Below, piece after piece: positions 3,179 through 63,710 of a stretch of 64,000 nt of DNA (positions within the stretch are counted from its first letter, which is position 1; the number at the start of each line of letters is the position of its first letter). The position numbers and the translations under genes are program-made. The DNA is taken from NCBI RefSeq assembly GCF_058153355.1, contig NZ_CM177019.1. The stretch is one strand, 5' to 3'. Below the pieces are notes generated by a model. That model saw only the letters and a list, made by a program, of their open reading frames with translations. It was not told the origin of the DNA and searched no databases.

Positions 3179-4087
3179 TTAACGATCTTTCGGGTCGAGG
3201 GCATCACGCAAGCCATCGCCGATAAAGTTGAAACAAAATAGCGTCACCACGAGGAATCCCGCTGGGAACAACAGTAACCATGGAGAGACTTCCATCGAGT
3301 TCGCGCCATCACTCAGCAATGCGCCCCAGCTGCTTAACGGCTCTTGCGTCCCCAACCCCAGGAAGCTAAGGAAAGATTCAAAGAGGATCATGCTGGGCAC
3401 CAGTAGCGATGCGTAGACCACCACCACACCGAGTACGTTCGGTACAATGTGGCGAATAACAATGCCCGGCGTCGATACACCGCCAACTTGTGCCGCCTCA
3501 ATAAACTCTTTGCGCTTCAGACTCAGGGTTTGCCCACGCACAATACGAGCCATATCCAGCCAGGAAACCATGCCTATCGCCACGAAAATCAGCAGGATGT
3601 TTTGACCGAAAAAGGTCACCAGCAAAATGACGAAGAACATGAATGGGAAGGAGTTGAGGATTTCCAGCAGACGCATCATTACCGAATCCACTTTACCGCC
3701 CAGATAACCGGAAAGCGAACCATAAAGTGTCCCGACGACCACAGCCACCAGTGCCGCAGCAACACCGACCATGAGTGAGATACGCCCGCCAATCGCAACG
3801 CGCACAAGCAGGTCGCGACCGGATGAGTCAGTACCAAAGTAGTGACCGGACTCCATATCTGGGGCGCTGGACATCATCGCCCAGTCAGTATCGTCATAGG
3901 CAAACTGCGAAAGCATCGGTGCCAGGATTACAAATAACGCGATTAGCACCAGCACTATCAGACTGGCAACCGCCGCACGGTTATGCATAAAACGTCGACG
4001 TGCGTCCTGCCACAAGCTGCGCCCTTCGACCTCCAGCTTTTCACTGAAATTTTCCAGCGTCTCGCTGTTTTTCTTACTTAACATCAT
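3179..4087 (-). CDS. oppC: oligopeptide ABC transporter permease OppC
   Basis: 302-aa hydrophobic multi-pass ORF with permease-type composition; operon position. Confidence 0.92.
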   Translation of the reverse strand: MMLSKKNSETLENFSEKLEVEGRSLWQDARRRFMHNRAAVASLIVLVLIALFVILAPMLSQFAYDDTDWAMMSSAPDMESGHYFGTDSSGRDLLVRVAIGGRISLMVGVAAALVAVVVGTLYGSLSGYLGGKVDSVMMRLLEILNSFPFMFFVILLVTFFGQNILLIFVAIGMVSWLDMARIVRGQTLSLKRKEFIEAAQVGGVSTPGIVIRHIVPNVLGVVVVYASLLVPSMILFESFLSFLGLGTQEPLSSWGALLSDGANSMEVSPWLLLFPAGFLVVTLFCFNFIGDGLRDALDPKDR

Positions 4088-5107: not shown

Positions 5108-6739
5108 TTAGTGCTTCACAATGTACATATTCCGGGTGTAGGTATTATCCAGCGGATCTTTGCCGGTATAGCCACCAACCCACGGTTTCACCAGACGCGC
5201 ATTCACGTAGTAATAAACAGGAACAATGGCCGAATCCTTATCCAGCTGTTGTTCTGCTTTAGTGTACAGAGCTGTGCGCTGCGCCTCGTCAGTCGCTTTC
5301 AGCGTTTCCGCCATAATGCTGTCAAAGGCCGGGCTCTTATAATGCGCGGTATTCATCGAGCTGTTCGACAGCATGGTGTTCAGGAAGGAAGTTGGTTCGT
5401 TGTAGTCTGCACACCAGCCTGCACGGGCCACATCAAAAGTACCCTGGTGACGGGTGTCGAGGAACGTTTTCCACTCCTGGTTAACCAGTTTGACGTTTAC
5501 ACCAATGTTTTTCTTCCATAATGAAGAGGCAGCAATCGCCAGCTTTTTATGCAGATCGGAGGTGTTATACAACAGGTTGATGGTCAACGGTTTGTCTGCG
5601 GTATAACCCGCTTCAGCCAGCAGTTTTTTCGCTTCTTCGTTACGTTTTTCCTGGCTCCAGCCAAACCATTCCGGCTGAGTCAATTTTGCGCCATCAGTAT
5701 ACGGTGGAGTGTAACCATAGGCGGGCATGTCGCCCTGCGCTTTCACTTTATTAACAATGATATCGCGGTCCATACCCAGTTTCAGTGCGGTACGCACACG
5801 TACATCGTTGAATGGCGGTTTCTGGTTGTTAATTTCGTAATAATAAGTGCACAGGTATGGATCAACGTGAACTTCGTCCGGGATCTCTTTTTTCAGCTTC
5901 TGGAACAATTCGATCGGCATGTTGTTATAAGTCATGTCGATTTCACCACTACGGTAGCGGTTGACATCGGTAACTTCAGAAGCAATAGGCAAATAGGTTA
6001 CCTGGTTAATAACGGTTTTCGCGTTGTTCCAGTAGGTTGGGCTGCGTTCAAGAACGATTCGTTCGTTTACGACCCAATCTTTTAAGGTATAGGCACCGTT
6101 GGTGATGATATTACCAGGCTGGGTCCATTTTTCGCCGAATTTCTCGATAGCGGCTTTTGGCACCGGTGAAGTTGATGGGTGAACAAGTAATTTATAGAAG
6201 TACGGAACAGGTTCACTTAAGGTGACTTCTAATGTGTGATCATCAATAGCTTTCACGCCGAGATCGGTAATCGGTTTTTTCCCTTCAAGAATTTCATCAA
6301 TACCGGCGATATGCCCATATTGCAGATAACTGGCATACGGAGAAGCGGTGTTTGGATCAACAGAACGTTGCCAGCTATACACAAAGTCTTGTGCTGTGAC
6401 TGGCGTGCCATCAGACCATTTCGCATCTTTACGCAAATGGAAGGTCCAGACTTTCGCGTCTTTATTATCCCAGGATTCAGCGACGCCAGGTGCCGGATGA
6501 CCGTCAAGATCGCTGACCAGTAAGCCTTCAAACAGGTCTCGGCTGATATTAGACTCCGGAACACCTTCAATTTTATGCGGATCTAATGACTGAACTTCTG
6601 AACCATTGTTACGTACCAGCGTTTGTTTTTCCGCCAGTGTGACGCCTGCGGGTACATCAGCTGCCAGCGCGACATTCCCTGCCATAAGCGCAGCCAGAAC
6701 GCCAGCTGCTACTAAACTTCTCTTGGTGATGTTGGTCAT
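5108..6739 (-). CDS. oppA: periplasmic oligopeptide-binding protein OppA
   Basis: ORF 5108..6811; start placed at the internal ATG giving MTNITKRSLVAAGVLAALMAGNVALA signal peptide (543 aa). Confidence 0.9.
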   Translation of the reverse strand: MTNITKRSLVAAGVLAALMAGNVALAADVPAGVTLAEKQTLVRNNGSEVQSLDPHKIEGVPESNISRDLFEGLLVSDLDGHPAPGVAESWDNKDAKVWTFHLRKDAKWSDGTPVTAQDFVYSWQRSVDPNTASPYASYLQYGHIAGIDEILEGKKPITDLGVKAIDDHTLEVTLSEPVPYFYKLLVHPSTSPVPKAAIEKFGEKWTQPGNIITNGAYTLKDWVVNERIVLERSPTYWNNAKTVINQVTYLPIASEVTDVNRYRSGEIDMTYNNMPIELFQKLKKEIPDEVHVDPYLCTYYYEINNQKPPFNDVRVRTALKLGMDRDIIVNKVKAQGDMPAYGYTPPYTDGAKLTQPEWFGWSQEKRNEEAKKLLAEAGYTADKPLTINLLYNTSDLHKKLAIAASSLWKKNIGVNVKLVNQEWKTFLDTRHQGTFDVARAGWCADYNEPTSFLNTMLSNSSMNTAHYKSPAFDSIMAETLKATDEAQRTALYTKAEQQLDKDSAIVPVYYYVNARLVKPWVGGYTGKDPLDNTYTRNMYIVKH

Positions 6740-11316: not shown

Positions 11317-12742
11317 TAATGCCGATCAGTTAAGGATCAGTTGACCGATCCAGTGGCTGTGTAAGAATCCGGAAACGCTCACTTGTTTCCGGATTTTTTT
11401 ATGCACATTGGACAGGCTCTTGATCTGGTATCCCGTTACGATTCTCTGCGTAACCCACTGACTTCTCTGGGGGATTACCTCGACCCCGAACTCATCTCTC
11501 GTTGCCTTGCCGAATCAGGTACTGTAACGCTACGCAAGCGCCGTCTTCCCCTCGAAATGATGGTCTGGTGTATTGTTGGCATGGCGCTTGAGCGTAAAGA
11601 ACCTCTTCACCAGATTGTGAATCGCCTGGACATCATGCTGCCGGGCAATCGCCCCTTCGTTGCCCCCAGTGCCGTTATTCAGGCCCGCCAGCGCCTGGGA
11701 AGTGAGGCTGTCCGCCGCGTGTTCACGAAAACAGCGCAGCTCTGGCATAACGCCACGCCGCATCCGCACTGGTGCGGCCTGACCCTGCTGGCCATCGATG
11801 GTGTGTTCTGGCGCACACCGGATACACCAGAGAACGATGCAGCCTTCCCCCGCCAGACACATGCCGGGAACCCGGCGCTCTACCCGCAGGTCAAAATGGT
11901 CTGCCAGATGGAACTGACCAGCCATCTGCTGACGGCTGCAGCCTTCGGCACGATGAAGAACAGCGAAAATGAGCTTGCTGAGCAACTTATAGAACAAACC
12001 GGCGATAACACTCTGACGTTAATGGATAAAGGTTATTACTCACTGGGACTGTTAAATGCCTGGAGCCTGGCGGGAGAACACCGCCACTGGATGATACCTC
12101 TCAGAAAGGGAGCGCAATATGAAGAGATCAGAAAACTGGGTAAAGGCGATCATCTGGTGAAGCTGAAAACCAGCCCGCAGGCACGAAAAAAGTGGCCGGG
12201 ACTGGGAAATGAAGTGACAGCCCGCCTGCTGACCGTGACGCGCAAAGGAAAAGTCTGCCATCTGCTGACGTCGATGACGGACGCCATGCGCTTCCCCGGA
12301 GGAGAAATGGCGGATCTGTACAGTCATCGCTGGGAAATCGAACTGGGATACAGGGAGATAAAACAGACGATGCAACTGAGCAGGCTGACGCTGAGAAGTA
12401 AAAAGCCGGAGCTTGTGGAGCAAGAGCTGTGGGGTGTCTTACTGGCTTATAATCTGGTGAGATATCAGATGATTAAAATGGCGGAACATCTGAAAGGTTA
12501 CTGGCCGAATCAACTGAGTTTCTCAGAATCATGCGGAATGGTGATGAGAATGCTGATGACATTGCAGGGCGCTTCACCGGGACGTATACCGGAGCTGATG
12601 CGCGATCTTGCAAGTATGGGACAACTTGTGAAATTACCGACAAGAAGGGAAAGGGCCTTCCCGAGAGTGGTAAAGGAGAGGCCCTGGAAATACCCCACAG
12701 CCCCGAAAAAGAGCCAGTCAGTTGCTTAACTGACTGGCATTA
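11317..12742 (+). mobile_element. IS4 insertion sequence, complete (1426 bp)
   Basis: imperfect terminal inverted repeats TAATGCCGATCAGTTAAG (left) and TAATGCCAGTCAGTTAAG (reverse complement of right end), 16/18 identical; length 1426 bp; single transposase ORF; 11-bp direct repeats. Confidence 0.9.
11401..12729 (+). CDS. IS4-family DDE transposase
   Basis: 442-aa ORF from ATG 11401 (track ORF starts at alternative TTG 11383); C-terminal Y(2)R(3)E(6)K signature [15 protein letters not shown] typical of the IS4 family. Confidence 0.9.
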
Positions 12743-14672: not shown

Positions 14673-14702
14673 AAAATCCCGCCATTGGCGGGATTTTTTA
14701 TT
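14673..14702 (+). terminator. hns rho-independent terminator
   Basis: ATCCCGCC-ATTG-GGCGGGAT hairpin followed by TTTTTTA. Confidence 0.6.
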
Positions 14703-20431: not shown

Positions 20432-20620
20432 GTAATCCTTCCCCCACCACCATCACACCTTTAAATACTCAAAACCTGTTACTTCAAGCTAATTTGCCCC
20501 GTGGCACCGCGTTTTCCGGACCTACAATATCCTCCCCTGTAGGTCAGATAAGCGAATCACTCCGCACCGTGCCCATAAAAAAACCCCGCCGAAGCAGGGT
20601 CTATGTGAACTAAAATTCGC

Positions 20621-47382: not shown

Positions 47383-47436
47383 GTACGAAATTGACCAGTC
47401 AGCGCAAACTGACTGGTCAGCAAAAGGCATTATTTG

Positions 47437-49785: not shown

Positions 49786-49842
49786 TTAATTTGTTGTCTC
49801 ATGAGGTTTCGCTAAATCTCATGAAGAGCGCAAAAGTATATA

Positions 49843-49868
49843 AAATCCACGCAATTGCGTGGATTTTT
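49843..49868 (+). terminator. ychF rho-independent terminator
   Basis: ATCCACGC-AATT-GCGTGGAT hairpin followed by TTTTTC. Confidence 0.55.
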
Positions 49869-56824: not shown

Positions 56825-57457
56825 ATGTCACTGAGCAGAACTCAAATTGTTAACTGGCTCACTCGCTGTGGAGAAATTTTCAGCACCGAGAGCGAGTATC
56901 TTACCGGACTGGATCGCGAAATTGGCGACGCTGACCACGGGCTAAATATGAACCGTGGCTTTAGCAAGGTGGTAGAAAAACTCCCTGCTATCGCAGATAA
57001 AGATATCGGTTTCATTCTCAAGAATACCGGCATGACGCTACTTTCCAGCGTCGGAGGTGCCAGTGGTCCGCTGTTCGGTACCTTCTTTATCCGCGCCGCA
57101 CAGACAACCCAGGCACGGCAAAGCCTGACGCTGGAAGAACTGTATCAGATGTTCCGCGATGGTGTAGACGGCGTAATCAGTCGCGGGAAAGCCGAACCTG
57201 GCGATAAAACCATGTGTGATGTCTGGGTGCCGGTGGTGGAATCGTTACGTCAGTCCAGCGAGCAAAATCTCTCTGTTCCGGTGGCGCTCGAAGCCGCCAG
57301 TAGCGTCGCTGAATCCGCTGCACAAAGTACGATTACGATGCAAGCCCGCAAAGGCCGCGCCAGTTATCTCGGTGAACGCAGTATTGGTCACCAGGATCCC
57401 GGCGCGACCTCCGTGATGTTTATGATGCAAATGCTGGCGTTAGCCGCAAAAGAGTAA
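56825..57457 (+). CDS. dhaL: dihydroxyacetone kinase, ADP-binding subunit DhaL
   Basis: 210-aa product from ATG 56825 MSLSRTQIVNWLTRCGEIF... Confidence 0.93.
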   Translation: MSLSRTQIVNWLTRCGEIFSTESEYLTGLDREIGDADHGLNMNRGFSKVVEKLPAIADKDIGFILKNTGMTLLSSVGGASGPLFGTFFIRAAQTTQARQSLTLEELYQMFRDGVDGVISRGKAEPGDKTMCDVWVPVVESLRQSSEQNLSVPVALEAASSVAESAAQSTITMQARKGRASYLGERSIGHQDPGATSVMFMMQMLALAAKE

Positions 57458-57467
57458 GGAAATGGTG

Positions 57468-58886
57468 ATGGTAAACCTGGTCATAGTTTCACATAGCGCC
57501 CGACTGGGAGAAGGTGTCGGTGAATTAGCCCGTCAGATGTTAATGAGTGATAGCTGTAAAATCGCCATTGCCGCGGGAATTGACGATCCCCAAAATCCCA
57601 TTGGTACCGATGCCGTCAAAGTGATGGAGGCCATCGAGTCCGTTGCCGATGCCGACCATGTGCTGGTGATGATGGATATGGGTAGCGCATTATTGAGTGC
57701 TGAAACTGCACTGGAGTTGCTGGCCCCCGAGATCGCCGCAAAAGTACGTTTGTGTGCGGCACCGTTAGTCGAAGGTACACTGGCAGCAACAGTCAGCGCG
57801 GCCTCGGGAGCAGATATCGACAAAGTTATCTATGACGCCATGCATGCGCTGGAAGCCAAACGTGAACAACTGGGTTTACCGTCCTCCGACACCGAAATCG
57901 CTGACACATGTCCTCCGTACGATGAAGAAGCCCATTCTCTGGCCGTGGTCATTAAAAACCGTAACGGCCTTCATGTACGTCCGGCCTCCCGGCTGGTTTA
58001 TACCTTATCGACATTTAATGCCGATATGTTGCTGGAGAAAAACGGTAAATGCGTCACGCCGGAGAGTATTAACCAGATCGCGCTACTACAAGTCCGCTAT
58101 AACGATACGCTGCGCCTGATTGCGAAAGGGCCAGAAGCTGAAGAGGCGCTGGTTGCTTTCCGTCAGCTGGCTGAAGATAACTTTGGTGAAACGGAAGAAG
58201 TTGCTCCGCCTACTCAGCGGCCCATTCCGCCTGTTTCGGGTAAAGCCTTTTATTATCAACCAGTTTTATGTACGGTACAGGCAAAATCAACTCTGACCGT
58301 GGAAGAAGAACAAGAACGATTACGTCAGGCAATTGACTTCACGTTATTAGATCTGATGACGTTAACAGCGAAAGCAGAAGCGAGCGGGCTTGACGATATT
58401 GCCGCAATCTTTTCTGGTCACCATACACTGTTAGATGATCCAGAACTGCTGGCGGCGGCAAACGAATTTCTTCAGCATGAGCATTGCACAGCAGAATATG
58501 CCTGGCAGCACGTTCTTAAAGAACTAAGCCAGCAATACCAACAACTGGATGATGAATATTTACAGGCTCGCTATATCGATGTGGACGATCTTCTACATCG
58601 CACCCTAATCCACCTGACGCAAACGAAAGAAGAACTCCCGCAATTTAACTCGCCAACCATTTTACTGGCGGAGAACATTTATCCGTCCACGGTTCTGCAA
58701 CTGGATCCGGCGGTTGTAAAAGGGATCTGCCTTAGCACCGGAAGTCTGGTATCCCACAGTGCCCTAATCGCCCACGAACTGGGGATTGGCTGGATTTGCC
58801 AGCAGGGTGAGAAACTGTATGCGATACAACCTGAAGAAACGTTAACGCTGGACGTTAAAACGCAACGTTTCAGCCATCAGGGATAA
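57468..58886 (+). CDS. dhaM: dihydroxyacetone kinase phosphotransfer subunit DhaM (EIIA-HPr-EI fusion)
   Basis: ORF 57462..58886; 472 aa from second ATG; EIIA-Man-like N-terminus, HPr-like middle and EI-like C-terminus. Confidence 0.9.
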   Translation: MVNLVIVSHSARLGEGVGELARQMLMSDSCKIAIAAGIDDPQNPIGTDAVKVMEAIESVADADHVLVMMDMGSALLSAETALELLAPEIAAKVRLCAAPLVEGTLAATVSAASGADIDKVIYDAMHALEAKREQLGLPSSDTEIADTCPPYDEEAHSLAVVIKNRNGLHVRPASRLVYTLSTFNADMLLEKNGKCVTPESINQIALLQVRYNDTLRLIAKGPEAEEALVAFRQLAEDNFGETEEVAPPTQRPIPPVSGKAFYYQPVLCTVQAKSTLTVEEEQERLRQAIDFTLLDLMTLTAKAEASGLDDIAAIFSGHHTLLDDPELLAAANEFLQHEHCTAEYAWQHVLKELSQQYQQLDDEYLQARYIDVDDLLHRTLIHLTQTKEELPQFNSPTILLAENIYPSTVLQLDPAVVKGICLSTGSLVSHSALIAHELGIGWICQQGEKLYAIQPEETLTLDVKTQRFSHQG

Positions 58887-59635
58887 ACCACCGTTCGGAT
58901 GGCATCGTTCTGATGCCATCCGGCAATTTACTCTGCTCTGATATTTTTTAACTACCTGTTATATTTTTTACCAAATCATGATGATTTTTTCTGCGCTAAT
59001 CGCAAACCAAACGTCGCTGGCTGGCTAATAAACAGACGTTATTTAATCACTCTATTTCACCCTTATTTATCCCTTTAATCTCCTTTTCCAAAATGCCTGA
59101 CAGTTCGCAGAATGAGATTTCGATCATGCAGTTAGTGCGATCCTGAACTAAGGTTTTCTGATACTTGAATACCGTTTTGTTCGGTTTCGCCCAAGGAGAA
59201 TGATTGATGAAAGCCACCGCCCCTCCTCGCCCGCAAAAAATAGCGTTAATTCCCGCCTGCGTTTTGTTGTGTTTCGCTGCGCTAGCGGTGCAGGCAGAAG
59301 AAACGCCAGTAACGCCACAGCCGCCTGATATTTTGTTAGGGCCGCTGTTTAACGATGTGCAAAACGCCAAACTTTTTCCGGACCAAAAGACCTTTGCTGA
59401 TGCCGTGCCGAACAGCGATCCGCTAATGATCCTTGCAGATTATCGAATGCAGCAAAACCAGAGCGGCTTTGATCTGCGCCATTTCGTTAACGTCAATTTC
59501 ACTCTGCCGAAAGAGGGAGAGAAATATGTTCCGCCAGAAGGGCAGTCGCTGCGCGAACATATTGACGGACTTTGGCCTGTATTAACGCGTTCTACCGAAA
59601 ACACCGAAAAATGGGATTCTCTGTTACCGCTGCCG

Positions 59636-59643
59636 GAACCTTA
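59636..59643. repeat. IS66-family target-site duplication, left copy (GAACCTTA)
   Basis: same 8-mer flanks the other end at 62113..62120. Confidence 0.85.
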
Positions 59644-59673
59644 GTAAGCGGCTCGCCAGAACCGTATTGATAT

Positions 59674-61245
59674 TTACTGAGAGCTCAGATCAACTTTCCA
59701 GGGCAACAGATCGCGTACCCGGTTTGCCGGCCAGTCCTGGATATGTTCAATGACGTAACGCAGCCACTTTTCTGGCTCCACATTGTTCAGACGGCATGTG
59801 CCGATCAGCGAGTACAACACCGCAGCATGTTCACCACCGCTGTCAGAACCCGCGAAGAGCCAGTTTTTCCGGCCTACGGCCACTCCCCGTAAGGCGTTCT
59901 CTGCGATGTTGTTGTCGATTTCCACCCAGCCATTACTGCAGTACACGTTCAGTGCATCCCACTGTTTCAGCAGGTATGCGAACGCTTTTGCCGTGTCCGA
60001 GTGACGCGACAGTGTTTTCATCTGTTGCTGTATCCAGTCATACAGTGACTGCATCAGTGGCGCGGCTCTGGCTTTTCTTGCCGCCAGACGCTGTTCTGCT
60101 GAACAGCCCCGGACCTCTGCCTCGATGGCATACAGTTCACCGATACGCTGCAGGGCTTCCGTGGTGATGTCGGTGGGCACTCTTGCATGCACATCGTGGA
60201 TTTTTCTCCGGGCATGAGCCATACATGCGGCTTCCGTTATTCTGCCGGATTCGTACAACGCCCGGTAACCACCGTAAGCATCGGCCTGAAGCACTCCGCT
60301 GTAACCGGCCAGATGATTCTGTGGATGGATACCTTTCCGGTCCGGGCTGTACGCGAACCAGACCGCCGGAGGCATTTCCGAACCGGCGTTACGGTCATCA
60401 CGAACGTAGACCCACAGCCGGGCAGTCCTTGTTTTACCGCTGCCCGGCTCCTGGACCGGAACGGGGATATCATCGGCATGGACTTTACCGGGCATCAGCA
60501 CATACTGGCGCAGGATGTCATACAGCGGTTCCAGCAGTTCAGCAACAGCACCTGTCCAGCGCCCCAGTGTGGCACGGCTCAGCTCCACGCCCTGACGACG
60601 GTATATTTCTGACTGGCGGTATAACGGCAGATGGTCTGCATATTTTCCAGCGACAACATGGGCCAGAAGCCCCGCTCCGGCATAACTGCGTGCAATGGGT
60701 TTTGAAGGCACCGGAGCCTGCACGATATGGTCGCACCGGCAACAGGCCAGTTTCGGACGTTGTGTTTCGATAACCTTAAAGGCGCTGCTGATAAGCTCCA
60801 GTTGCTCTGACACATCACATCCCAGAGAACTGAGTTCGCCACCACAGGCCGGGCAGCATTCCTCTTCCGGACGGATGACCCGGGTTTCACGGGGAAGTGA
60901 GGCAGGTAACGGTTTACGGGCTGAAGACTGGCGCAGGGGAGATGGCAGTACCGGGTCATATTGCTCACCCAGCGTTTCCGCCATTTCTTCCTGAAGAGCG
61001 CTGATTCGCTCCTGTGCTTCCTGTATCTGCCGTTCGGTTTTTGCACGAAGTTTTTCTGAGCTTTTACCGAACTGCATGCGCTGCAGTTTTGCAACCAGCG
61101 CCTTCAGCCGGTTGATTTCGGAAGCATAAGCCGCCACCCGCTGTGAGAGCAGGCGGTTGTATTTCGCCATCTGGCGGATGGTGTCCTGTTGCGTCTGCAA
61201 CAGTGCCCGCAGGCGGGCATTCTCATGAGCAAGTGAGGTGTCCAT
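59674..61245 (-). CDS. IS66-family transposase (TnpC/orf3)
   Basis: 523-aa ORF with N-terminal coiled-coil/leucine zipper, CxxC...CxxC zinc-finger-like motif (CCPACGGEL...ACCRCDH) and DDE region. Confidence 0.9.
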
Positions 61246-61264
61246 ATCCTCACTTTACAACGGG

Positions 61265-61612
61265 TTATATGCGGATGCCAGCGCGTTCCGTTCGTTTCGG
61301 GTGTTTCCAGTCGATGCCCTCAAGAAGCATGGATAACTGGGCCGGAGTAAGGTGCACCTTGCCGTCACGGGTGACCGGCCAGACGAAGCGGCCCCGCTCC
61401 AGGCGTCTGGTGAAGAGGCACAGTCCGTCACTGTCAGCCCACAACACTTTTATCTGGTCACCCCGGCGTCCGCGGAAGATGAACAGATGCCCGGAGAACG
61501 GGTCATCCTTCAGGACGTTCTGAACTTTTGAGGCCAGGCCGTTAAAGCCATTTCGCATATCGGTGATACCTGCAACCAGCCAGATACGCGAACCTGCAGG
61601 GAGAGATATCAC
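61265..61612 (-). CDS. IS66 Orf2 (TnpB) accessory protein
   Basis: 115-aa ORF MISLPAGSRIWLVAGITDMRNGFNGLASKV... typical of IS66 orf2. Confidence 0.85.
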   Translation of the reverse strand: MISLPAGSRIWLVAGITDMRNGFNGLASKVQNVLKDDPFSGHLFIFRGRRGDQIKVLWADSDGLCLFTRRLERGRFVWPVTRDGKVHLTPAQLSMLLEGIDWKHPKRTERAGIRI

Positions 61613-62037
61613 CGTCTCAGCTCCTGTATAAGCAAGGACAGCAGATTTTCATTCACTGCCCCGTTCAACCGAAGGGTGCCGTTTCTGAACGTAATCTCAC
61701 AGGAGATGCTGTGTATTTCCGGTGTTACTGACGGTCTTGCGGTCAGTGGCTCATTAGCCGGAGCAGTTGGGAGTTGGGCATCAATAGTGACAGGAATTAA
61801 CTGAGATTCTCTGCCTGATTCTGATGATGGCAATTTTATCTTCCCCTGCCGCCATTTCTGACGCCATTTGAACAACAGATTGGCATTAATACCATTGTCC
61901 AGGGCCAGTCTGGAAATTGAAACACCTGGCTGGAATGATGCTTCTATGAGTCGTTGTTTGAATTCAGGAGGATAATTCAGGCACCCTTTAGGCCTTCCCG
62001 GAGAGGCATTTTTTTGTATATCTGACATTTTTATCAC
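61609..62037 (-). CDS. IS66 Orf1 (TnpA) HTH accessory protein
   Basis: 142-aa ORF; ATGA overlap with orf2 typical of IS66-family translational coupling. Confidence 0.8.
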   Translation of the reverse strand: MIKMSDIQKNASPGRPKGCLNYPPEFKQRLIEASFQPGVSISRLALDNGINANLLFKWRQKWRQGKIKLPSSESGRESQLIPVTIDAQLPTAPANEPLTARPSVTPEIHSISCEITFRNGTLRLNGAVNENLLSLLIQELRR

Positions 62038-62112
62038 CCACTATTAATTTAGTGGTGGATACTTTGTCCAAAGCATCGGGAATTTGCCAGACGGTCCTGA
62101 TAAGACGCTTAC

Positions 62113-62120
62113 GAACCTTA
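62113..62120. repeat. IS66-family target-site duplication, right copy (GAACCTTA)
   Basis: identical to 59636..59643. Confidence 0.85.
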
Positions 62121-63710
62121 TGTCGTGCCGGGCGGACGTTTTCGCGAGGTATATTACTGGGACAGTTACTTCACCATGTTAGGGCTTGCCGAAAGCGACC
62201 ACTGGGATAAAGTTGCGGATATGGTGGCCAATTTTGCTCATGAAATAGACACTTACGGGCATATTCCCAACGGCAACCGCAGTTACTATTTAAGCCGCTC
62301 GCAACCGCCCTTCTTTGCCCTGATGGTAGAGTTACTGGCGCAGCATGAAGGCGATGCCGCGTTGAAGCAATACCTGCCGCAAATGCAAAAAGAATATGCT
62401 TACTGGATGGACGGTGTTGAAAACCTGCAAGCCGGACAACAGGAAAAACGCGTTGTCAAACTTCAGGATGGTACCCTTCTCAACCGCTACTGGGACGATC
62501 GCGATACGCCACGACCAGAGTCATGGGTGGAAGATATTGCCACCGCCAAAAGCAATCCGAACCGGCCTGCCACTGAAATTTACCGCGACCTGCGCTCTGC
62601 CGCTGCGTCTGGCTGGGATTTCAGCTCGCGCTGGATGGACAATCCGCAGCAGTTAAACACCTTACGCACCACCAGCATCGTACCGGTCGATCTGAACAGC
62701 TTGATGTTCAAAATGGAAAAAAACCTCGCCCGCGCCAGCAAAGCTGCCGGAGATAACGCGATGGCAAACCAGTACGAAACGCTGGCAAATGCCCGTCAAA
62801 AAGGGATCGAAAAATACCTGTGGAACGATCAACAAGGCTGGTATGCCGATTACGACCTGAAAAGTCATAAAGTGCGCAATCAGTTAACCGCTGCCGCCCT
62901 ATTCCCGCTGTACGTCAATGCGGCAGCGAAAGATCGCGCCAACAAAATGGCAACGGCAACGAAAACACATCTGCTGCAACCCGGCGGCCTGAACACCACG
63001 TCGGTGAAAAGTGGGCAACAATGGGATGCACCAAATGGCTGGGCACCGTTGCAGTGGGTCGCGACGGAAGGATTACAAAACTACGGGCAAAAAGAGGTGG
63101 CGATGGACATTAGCTGGCACTTCCTTACCAATGTTCAGCACACCTATGACCGGGAGAAAAAGCTGGTGGAAAAATATGATGTCAGCACCACCGGAACAGG
63201 GGGCGGCGGTGGCGAATATCCATTACAGGATGGCTTTGGCTGGACCAATGGCGTGACGCTGAAAATGCTGGATTTGATCTGCCCGAAAGAGCAACCGTGT
63301 GACAATGTTCCGGCGACGCGTCCACTCAGTGAATCAACAACACAGCCGCTAAAACAAAAAGAGGCGGAACCTACGCCTTAACTTTACTGTATATCGAGCA
63401 ATGCCATTACGTGCATAAAATTGGCATTGCTCTTTCTTCATCACGAAATACCACTCTTTCTACAGTCTATGCCTTTATTTTCTTTTATTAGGGAAGATTT
63501 TAATTTTATTTTATCAACTTGTTAATCATTACACCTCTATTTATATTTTCCCCCACTCCCCATTCTCCCTGACAATTTTCTTGTGGAACAAAGTGTTATT
63601 TAAGAAACAAGCAAATCATTCTGTCTCTTTAGACAAATTTTGACATCAAACATGATCTTTTTCGCTATATGTGTAAGTATATAGCGGTTTTAATTATCAG
63701 GATATTACTT

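Follow-up and report, generated by a model that had tools for sequence, protein, structure and literature searches.

The window analysed here is a 64,000-nucleotide stretch of contig NZ_CM177019.1 (assembly GCF_058153355.1) and belongs to a divergent Escherichia coli lineage; the locus of interest is approximately 92-94% identical to its counterpart in K-12 and about 92% identical to that of typical E. coli, whereas 17 genomes labelled E. coli match it at 99% identity or more. The genes dhaK, dhaL, dhaM and then treA follow one another on one strand, in the same order as in K-12. The last gene of dhaKLM, dhaM, occupies 57468..58886 on the plus strand. It was identified from its open reading frame, from its Pfam domains (EIIA-man, PTS-HPr, PEP-utilisers_N and PEP-utilizers), and from the annotation of the frame as dhaM both in K-12 and in the EC42405 genome, which is 99.4% identical. 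The open frame extends back to an ATG at 57462, and the start at 57468 is that of the 1,419-nt RefSeq annotation; the stop codon, TAA, lies at 58884-58886. A 320-bp spacer that aligns to K-12 over its full length separates dhaM from treA, whose 5' fragment (59207..59644, plus strand) was recognized by a trehalase Pfam match. In the window treA is interrupted by a 2,468-bp IS66-family element at 59645-62112, leaving treA pieces at 59207-59644 and 62113-63381. This element carries three minus-strand open reading frames, with matches to HTH_Tnp_1 (142 aa), TnpB_IS66 (115 aa), and DDE_Tnp_IS66 plus zf-IS66 (523 aa). Its termini read GTAAGCG...CGCTTAC, and it is flanked by an 8-bp target duplication, GAACCTTA, at 59637-59644 and 62113-62120. 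Both EC42405 and K-12 have an intact treA.

Immediately downstream of dhaM, in its 3' untranslated region, lies a stem-loop at 58896..58922 (plus strand), delineated by sequence, folding and conservation. Its 5' arm, CGGATGGCATC (58896-58906), and its 3' arm, GATGCCATCCG (58912-58922), enclose the 5-nt loop GTTCT (58907-58911). The earlier note on this DNA had described a perfect 11-bp stem behind dhaM, and all 11 pairs are indeed Watson-Crick, six of them G-C; bases 58895 and 58923 could add a U·G pair. The stem starts at the tenth base past the dhaM stop codon, as that note had also reported, with the nine bases ACCACCGTT in between. The hairpin alone has a predicted folding energy of -21.3 kcal/mol, and a 96-nt segment containing it folds at -25.6 kcal/mol (z = -4.2), an energy equaled by none of 200 shuffled sequences. 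The window contains six hairpins with perfect arms of 11 bp or more and loops of 3-8 nt, compared with a mean of 0.12 in 100 dinucleotide-preserving shuffles of the window. Together, this excess and the fold z-score indicate that the hairpin is not a chance feature. The other five hairpins of this set lie at 11366-11395, 12713-12738, 14673-14697, 47392-47419 and 49842-49867. The last of these (AAAATCCACGCAATTGCGTGGATTTT) is identical in sequence to a hairpin at an "orphan" Term-seq 3' end in K-12, 1256636(-), and looks like a bidirectional intrinsic terminator.

An intrinsic terminator is defined by a GC-rich stem of 5-14 bp that closes a short loop and is followed directly by a U-rich tract of 7-8 nt. 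The dhaM hairpin has a stem-loop of this kind but not the tract. The 15 bases that follow the stem, GCAATTTACTCTGCT, contain no T-run, as the earlier note had observed, and T occupies only three of the first eight positions; the closest runs of six T residues, at 58944-58949 and 58964-58969, are at least 22 nt from the stem. Scored in the style of TransTermHP, the tail of the hairpin reaches -0.37, compared with -5.7 for a model U-tract, and a scan of positions 58000-60000 for consensus terminators returned no site. Both results agree with the view, already put forward in that note, that the hairpin is not a classical intrinsic terminator.

Mapping of transcript 3' ends had been proposed as a check on the function of the hairpin, and such a map exists for K-12. 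In Supplementary file 1 of Adams et al. 2021 (eLife, PMC7815308), a dominant dhaM 3' end, classed as "primary", is given in the sheet "LB 0.4" at 1247656(-), with the sequence GTCAGGGTTAAGCCACTGTTCGGATGGCATCGTTCTGATGTCATCCGGCAATTTACTCAGC. The strings in this table are 61 nt long and extend from 50 nt before the end to 10 nt after it. We checked the coordinate against the stop codon, whose last A is string position 11 and K-12 position 1247696, so that position 51 falls at 1247656. The K-12 end is thus the second A of GGCAA, 4 nt past the last paired base of the orthologous stem. Transferred by alignment, this steady-state 3' end (NC_000913.3 1247656, minus strand) corresponds to position 58926 on the plus strand of the window, where an end is predicted for the present genome. 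The end is called in the LB OD 0.4 sheet only and occurs once in the file. We considered whether the +4 offset could separate processed from intrinsic ends and dropped the idea because some intrinsic terminators in the table of Adams et al. 2021 (PMC7815308) likewise end at +4. A further Term-seq 3' end from the same authors, termed "internal", falls within dhaM, at K-12 1248695(-) or approximately window position 57887, with a nonsignificant Rho score of 1.1 and an intrinsic-terminator score of 1.36. The TERMITe supplements do not mention dhaM, and literature searches on dhaM together with bicyclomycin and on dhaKLM-treA transcripts returned nothing relevant. All experimental 3'-end and Rho data that bear on the hairpin locus come from K-12, which is another lineage.

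Downstream of the mapped end, Supplementary file 2 of Adams et al. 2021 (PMC7815308) places a K-12 Rho termination region at 1247110(-), 546 nt past the 3' end and inside treA. For this region, the read counts in the absence of bicyclomycin are 176 upstream and 9 downstream; with the drug they are 195 and 151, which gives a Rho score of 15.1 (p = 5.7e-24). The score was computed over 800-nt windows that also span the treA promoter, and its peak lies inside treA, so the Rho-sensitive RNA could start at the treA promoter instead of representing read-through from dhaKLM. By approximate coordinate transfer, the K-12 peak is orthologous to position ~59472, within the treA 5' fragment. Between the hairpin and the treA promoter, on the same strand, lies an untranslated spacer (58923..59100) that is C-rich and G-poor, with 42 C and 19 G residues over 178 nt (C/G = 2.2); the 60 nt from 59040 onward consist of 28% C and 3% G. 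Based on this composition, we regard the spacer as a candidate Rho loading region that may function as a rut site.

The hairpin is widely conserved within the species. Using a 46-nt query and accepting matches with E values up to 10, we found it in 5,319 of 5,426 E. coli genomes, at a median of one place per genome. The search for the palindrome elsewhere that had been suggested as a second check thus returned a single copy per genome, always after dhaM. Within the window the exact palindrome occurs once, and it remains the only occurrence when three mismatches are allowed. When metagenome and viral contigs were scanned with a degenerate pattern, 33 copies shared the loop and flanks of the hairpin, and each of them lay after dhaM; 133 further matches to the pattern were set aside as unrelated hairpins that fit a short pattern.

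In most E. coli, including K-12, O157 and 30 of the 33 metagenome copies, the 3' arm of the stem reads GATGtCATCCG, and in EC42405 it reads GATGCCATtCG (the C-to-T change of each arm is in lower case). In the sense RNA both changes yield G·U pairs, with folding energies of -18.6 and -18.4 kcal/mol; in the antisense RNA they yield A·C mismatches, with energies of -13.7 and -14.0 kcal/mol. This strand asymmetry points weakly to an RNA structure on the dhaM strand, given that only two independent changes of the G·U type are available (about p = 0.25). Across nine Escherichia haplotypes, 97% of stem cells are paired, and no compensatory double substitutions occur among these haplotypes, whose phylogenetic depth is shallow and for which the shuffle control was uninformative.

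Comparison among Escherichia species provided information on which gene the hairpin accompanies. E. whittamii retains it in the form CCGGATGGCAT-CGTAACT-ATGCCATCCGG. In that genome (L005, 3925-5336), treA is replaced by a convergent gene for a 451-aa transporter-like protein that ends at 3981, and the hairpin lies between the two convergent genes. Because the hairpin is kept even though the downstream gene differs, we assign it to dhaM rather than to treA. In two other representatives of Escherichia species (L004 and L006), a 209-bp segment that comprises the hairpin and the C-rich spacer is missing, and the element is therefore dispensable. In both, the dhaM stop (3925) runs straight into the conserved treA promoter region, an arrangement that could have arisen through either an insertion or a deletion. 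In Escherichia sp. MOD1-EC7003 (L003), AA replaces CG in the 5' arm at the two pairs that form the base of the stem, which leaves a 9-bp stem, and an insertion of approximately 43 bp is located 8 nt past the stem. In E. coli MS8324 (L030, 2720-4000), dhaM is annotated as a partial pseudogene, its 3' part being replaced by approximately 1.3 kb of unannotated, unrelated sequence that ends 4 nt before the hairpin. A scan of species-representative genomes for DhaM showed the hairpin sequence to be confined to Escherichia. In Citrobacter, Klebsiella, Yersinia, Cedecea, Rahnella and Pantoea, unrelated hairpins occur soon after the dhaM stop codon, those of Pantoea with U-rich tails. This recurrence suggests that the dha operon generally needs a 3' structure at its end.

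A precedent for a stable hairpin of this kind at an mRNA 3' end was described by Dar & Sorek 2018 (NAR, PMC6061677), who reported that Rho-dependent E. coli transcripts have precise steady-state 3' ends directly past stable stem-loops. These stem-loops resemble intrinsic terminators in energy and lack a U-tract. Transcription ends farther downstream, and the tail is then shortened up to the stem by PNPase and RNase II; rut sites and a bias of C over G lie directly downstream of the stem (PMC6061677). By analogy with these transcripts, we think it probable that the dhaM hairpin forms the 3' terminus of the dhaKLM mRNA as a protective stem-loop and that the transcript is ended by Rho and not by an intrinsic terminator. 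The earlier note had listed a stabilizing stem-loop and a Rho-dependent element as separate options. Taken together, these two options are supported by the K-12 3' end, the K-12 Rho region and the C-rich, G-poor sequence downstream.

The sequence of events that we propose is as follows. RNA polymerase would not be released at the hairpin, which lacks a U-tract, and would continue past it. After the ribosome has come off at the dhaM stop codon, Rho would load onto the RNA from 58923 to approximately 59100, which is untranslated, rich in C and poor in G. Rho would then end transcription diffusely within a few hundred nucleotides, either between the two genes or early in treA. PNPase and RNase II, acting in the 3'-to-5' direction, would then trim the tail until they are stopped by the stem of approximately -21 kcal/mol, producing a 3' end about 4 nt past it. 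In this way the hairpin would set the stable end of the message, and the hairpin and Rho together would keep DhaR-controlled dha transcription out of treA. This scheme presumes a start of the Rho-sensitive transcripts at the dha promoter, an exonucleolytic origin of the mapped end, and the same course of events in the present lineage.

We considered whether the hairpin could instead be a weak, noncanonical intrinsic terminator, in which the stem and the following GCAAUUUACUCU free some polymerases, perhaps aided by NusA or NusG, and Rho serves only as a backstop. The stability of the stem equals that of real terminators, three U residues are present at +5 to +7, and mixed or transitional cases with reduced U content are discussed by Dar & Sorek (PMC6061677); the hairpins behind the Pantoea dhaM genes, with their U-rich tails, are also in keeping with such a function. 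However, the mapped K-12 end at +4 precedes the three U residues, downstream read-through in K-12 is strongly sensitive to bicyclomycin, and both the tail score of -0.37 and the consensus scan without a match argue against release at the stem, making this explanation unlikely. A different kind of explanation places the hairpin at the level of DNA, as a protein-binding palindrome or as the relic of a mobile REP-like element. The perfection of the inverted repeat and the presence or absence of the 209-bp segment with the hairpin among Escherichia species could be read in this way, as could the base of the stem on the minus strand (TGCCGGATG...CATCCG), which resembles a REP stem base in the Adams table; moreover, the broad operational definition used by RepRanger labels any palindrome without a T-tail as a putative REP. 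REP elements are defined by a GTAG/CTAC tetranucleotide, the recognition tag of RAYT proteins. Neither GTAG nor CTAC occurs within 15 nt on either side of the hairpin, and we rejected an assignment as a REP element, for which many dispersed copies would be expected, whereas the dhaM hairpin is tagless and present once per genome. The annotation of K-12 is uninformative on REP status, since the record has no repeat feature at the dhaM locus and none at 5565-5669, which we take to be the site of a REP/RIP element. The metagenome copies with the same loop and flanks lie after dhaM only, an RNA 3' end maps to the hairpin in K-12, and Rfam has no matching family: a scan of positions 57000-60500 against Rfam 15, with E values up to 10, returned only a chance-level snoRNA match (15.7 bits, E = 8.3). 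The protein-binding palindrome that the earlier note had offered as a third option found no support, as the stem variants keep pairing, through G·U, in the sense RNA only. On balance, a role at the DNA level appears highly improbable.

The short distance between the dhaM stop codon and the stem raises another possibility, namely, that the main role of the hairpin is in translation. REP elements located less than 16 nt from a stop codon affect translation (Liang et al. 2015, as summarised in PMC12306157), and a stem-loop within this distance might by analogy hinder the terminating ribosome and reduce DhaM through stalling, mRNA cleavage and tmRNA. In the Escherichia copies the stem starts 9 nt after the stop codon (11 nt in E. 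whittamii), and a translational effect is compatible with, and does not exclude, a protective role. On the other hand, the effect has been tested for REP elements only, a 3-nt insertion in E. whittamii puts the base of the stem 11 nt past the stop codon, and the spacing between stop codon and stem varies widely in other genera. We therefore regard translation as quite an unlikely main role. We give a similarly small chance to a broader scenario, in which the hairpin, besides protecting the 3' end, would lie exactly at the mouth of the ribosomal mRNA channel during termination at the dhaM stop codon, 9 nt away, and would slow this step, either lowering DhaM relative to DhaK and DhaL or timing the loading of Rho, and would also insulate treA. 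If this were true, the hairpin would uncouple DhaR-controlled dha transcription from the osmotically regulated treA, and the Escherichia species without the 209-bp segment of hairpin plus spacer would cotranscribe treA with dhaKLM.

Under the reading that we favor, a protective stem-loop on a Rho-terminated message, the dhaKLM operon has a defined 3' boundary in the hairpin, and the presence of a strong hairpin without a U-tract after dhaM is accounted for. It would be one more documented example of the rule by which E. coli mRNAs terminated by Rho have protective stem-loops at their ends, and otherwise would matter little beyond annotation. The hairpin could serve as a compact natural element for 3' stabilization without transcription termination, and it could provide a test case for the effect of stop-codon-proximal hairpins on translation termination.

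Several known systems can be compared with the dhaM hairpin. Intrinsic terminators resemble it in the length of the stem, the size of the loop and the folding energy, and they too are found behind the last gene of an operon, but they have a U-rich tract after the stem and an A-tract before it, and the dhaM hairpin has neither. REP elements, like the dhaM hairpin, are extragenic palindromes of 3' untranslated regions with a similar stem base (CCGGATG/CATCCGG). They are known stabilizers of mRNA 3' ends, a role that is likely for the dhaM hairpin as well, and they modulate translation when less than 16 nt from a stop codon, a distance within which the dhaM hairpin also lies. In contrast to the dhaM hairpin, which is 27 bp long with a perfect stem, one copy per genome and no tag, REP elements are repetitive, tagged, approximately 35 bp long and mismatched in the stem. 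Elsewhere in the window, at 20510-20554, an imperfect inverted repeat (CCGGACCTACA / TGTAGGTCAGATAAGCG) resembles a genuine REP/BIME with its GTAG/CTAC tag, unlike the dhaM hairpin.

Parallels are also found in the hairpins after can/hpt, pepD and erpA (Adams et al. 2021, Supplementary file 1), which are of the CCGGATG...CATCCGG type with absent or weak U-tracts and have a stem base similar to that of dhaM. Their Term-seq ends fall 4-6 nt past the stem, compared with 4 nt for dhaM. These are nevertheless independent loci with other stem tops and loops and do not form a homologous family with the dhaM hairpin. The stem-loops described by Dar & Sorek share with it a stable GC-containing structure in the 3' untranslated region, the lack of a U-tract and, in K-12 data, an RNA end a few nucleotides past the stem, as well as sequence with more C than G right downstream and, in K-12, a bicyclomycin-sensitive region farther on whose transcripts may start at either the dha or the treA promoter. 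Three features that mark this class, namely, a stable stem-loop before an RNA 3' end, no U-tract and an excess of C over G downstream, are found at dhaM, with the end taken from K-12 and transferred by alignment. Two differences should be noted: the dhaM stem lies unusually near the stop codon (9 nt), and the ends of the Dar & Sorek class are made by exonucleases, whereas for dhaM an exonuclease origin of the end and the action of Rho on the dha transcript are presumed. With these differences in mind, the dhaM hairpin is an ordinary, individually undescribed member of a well-described class.
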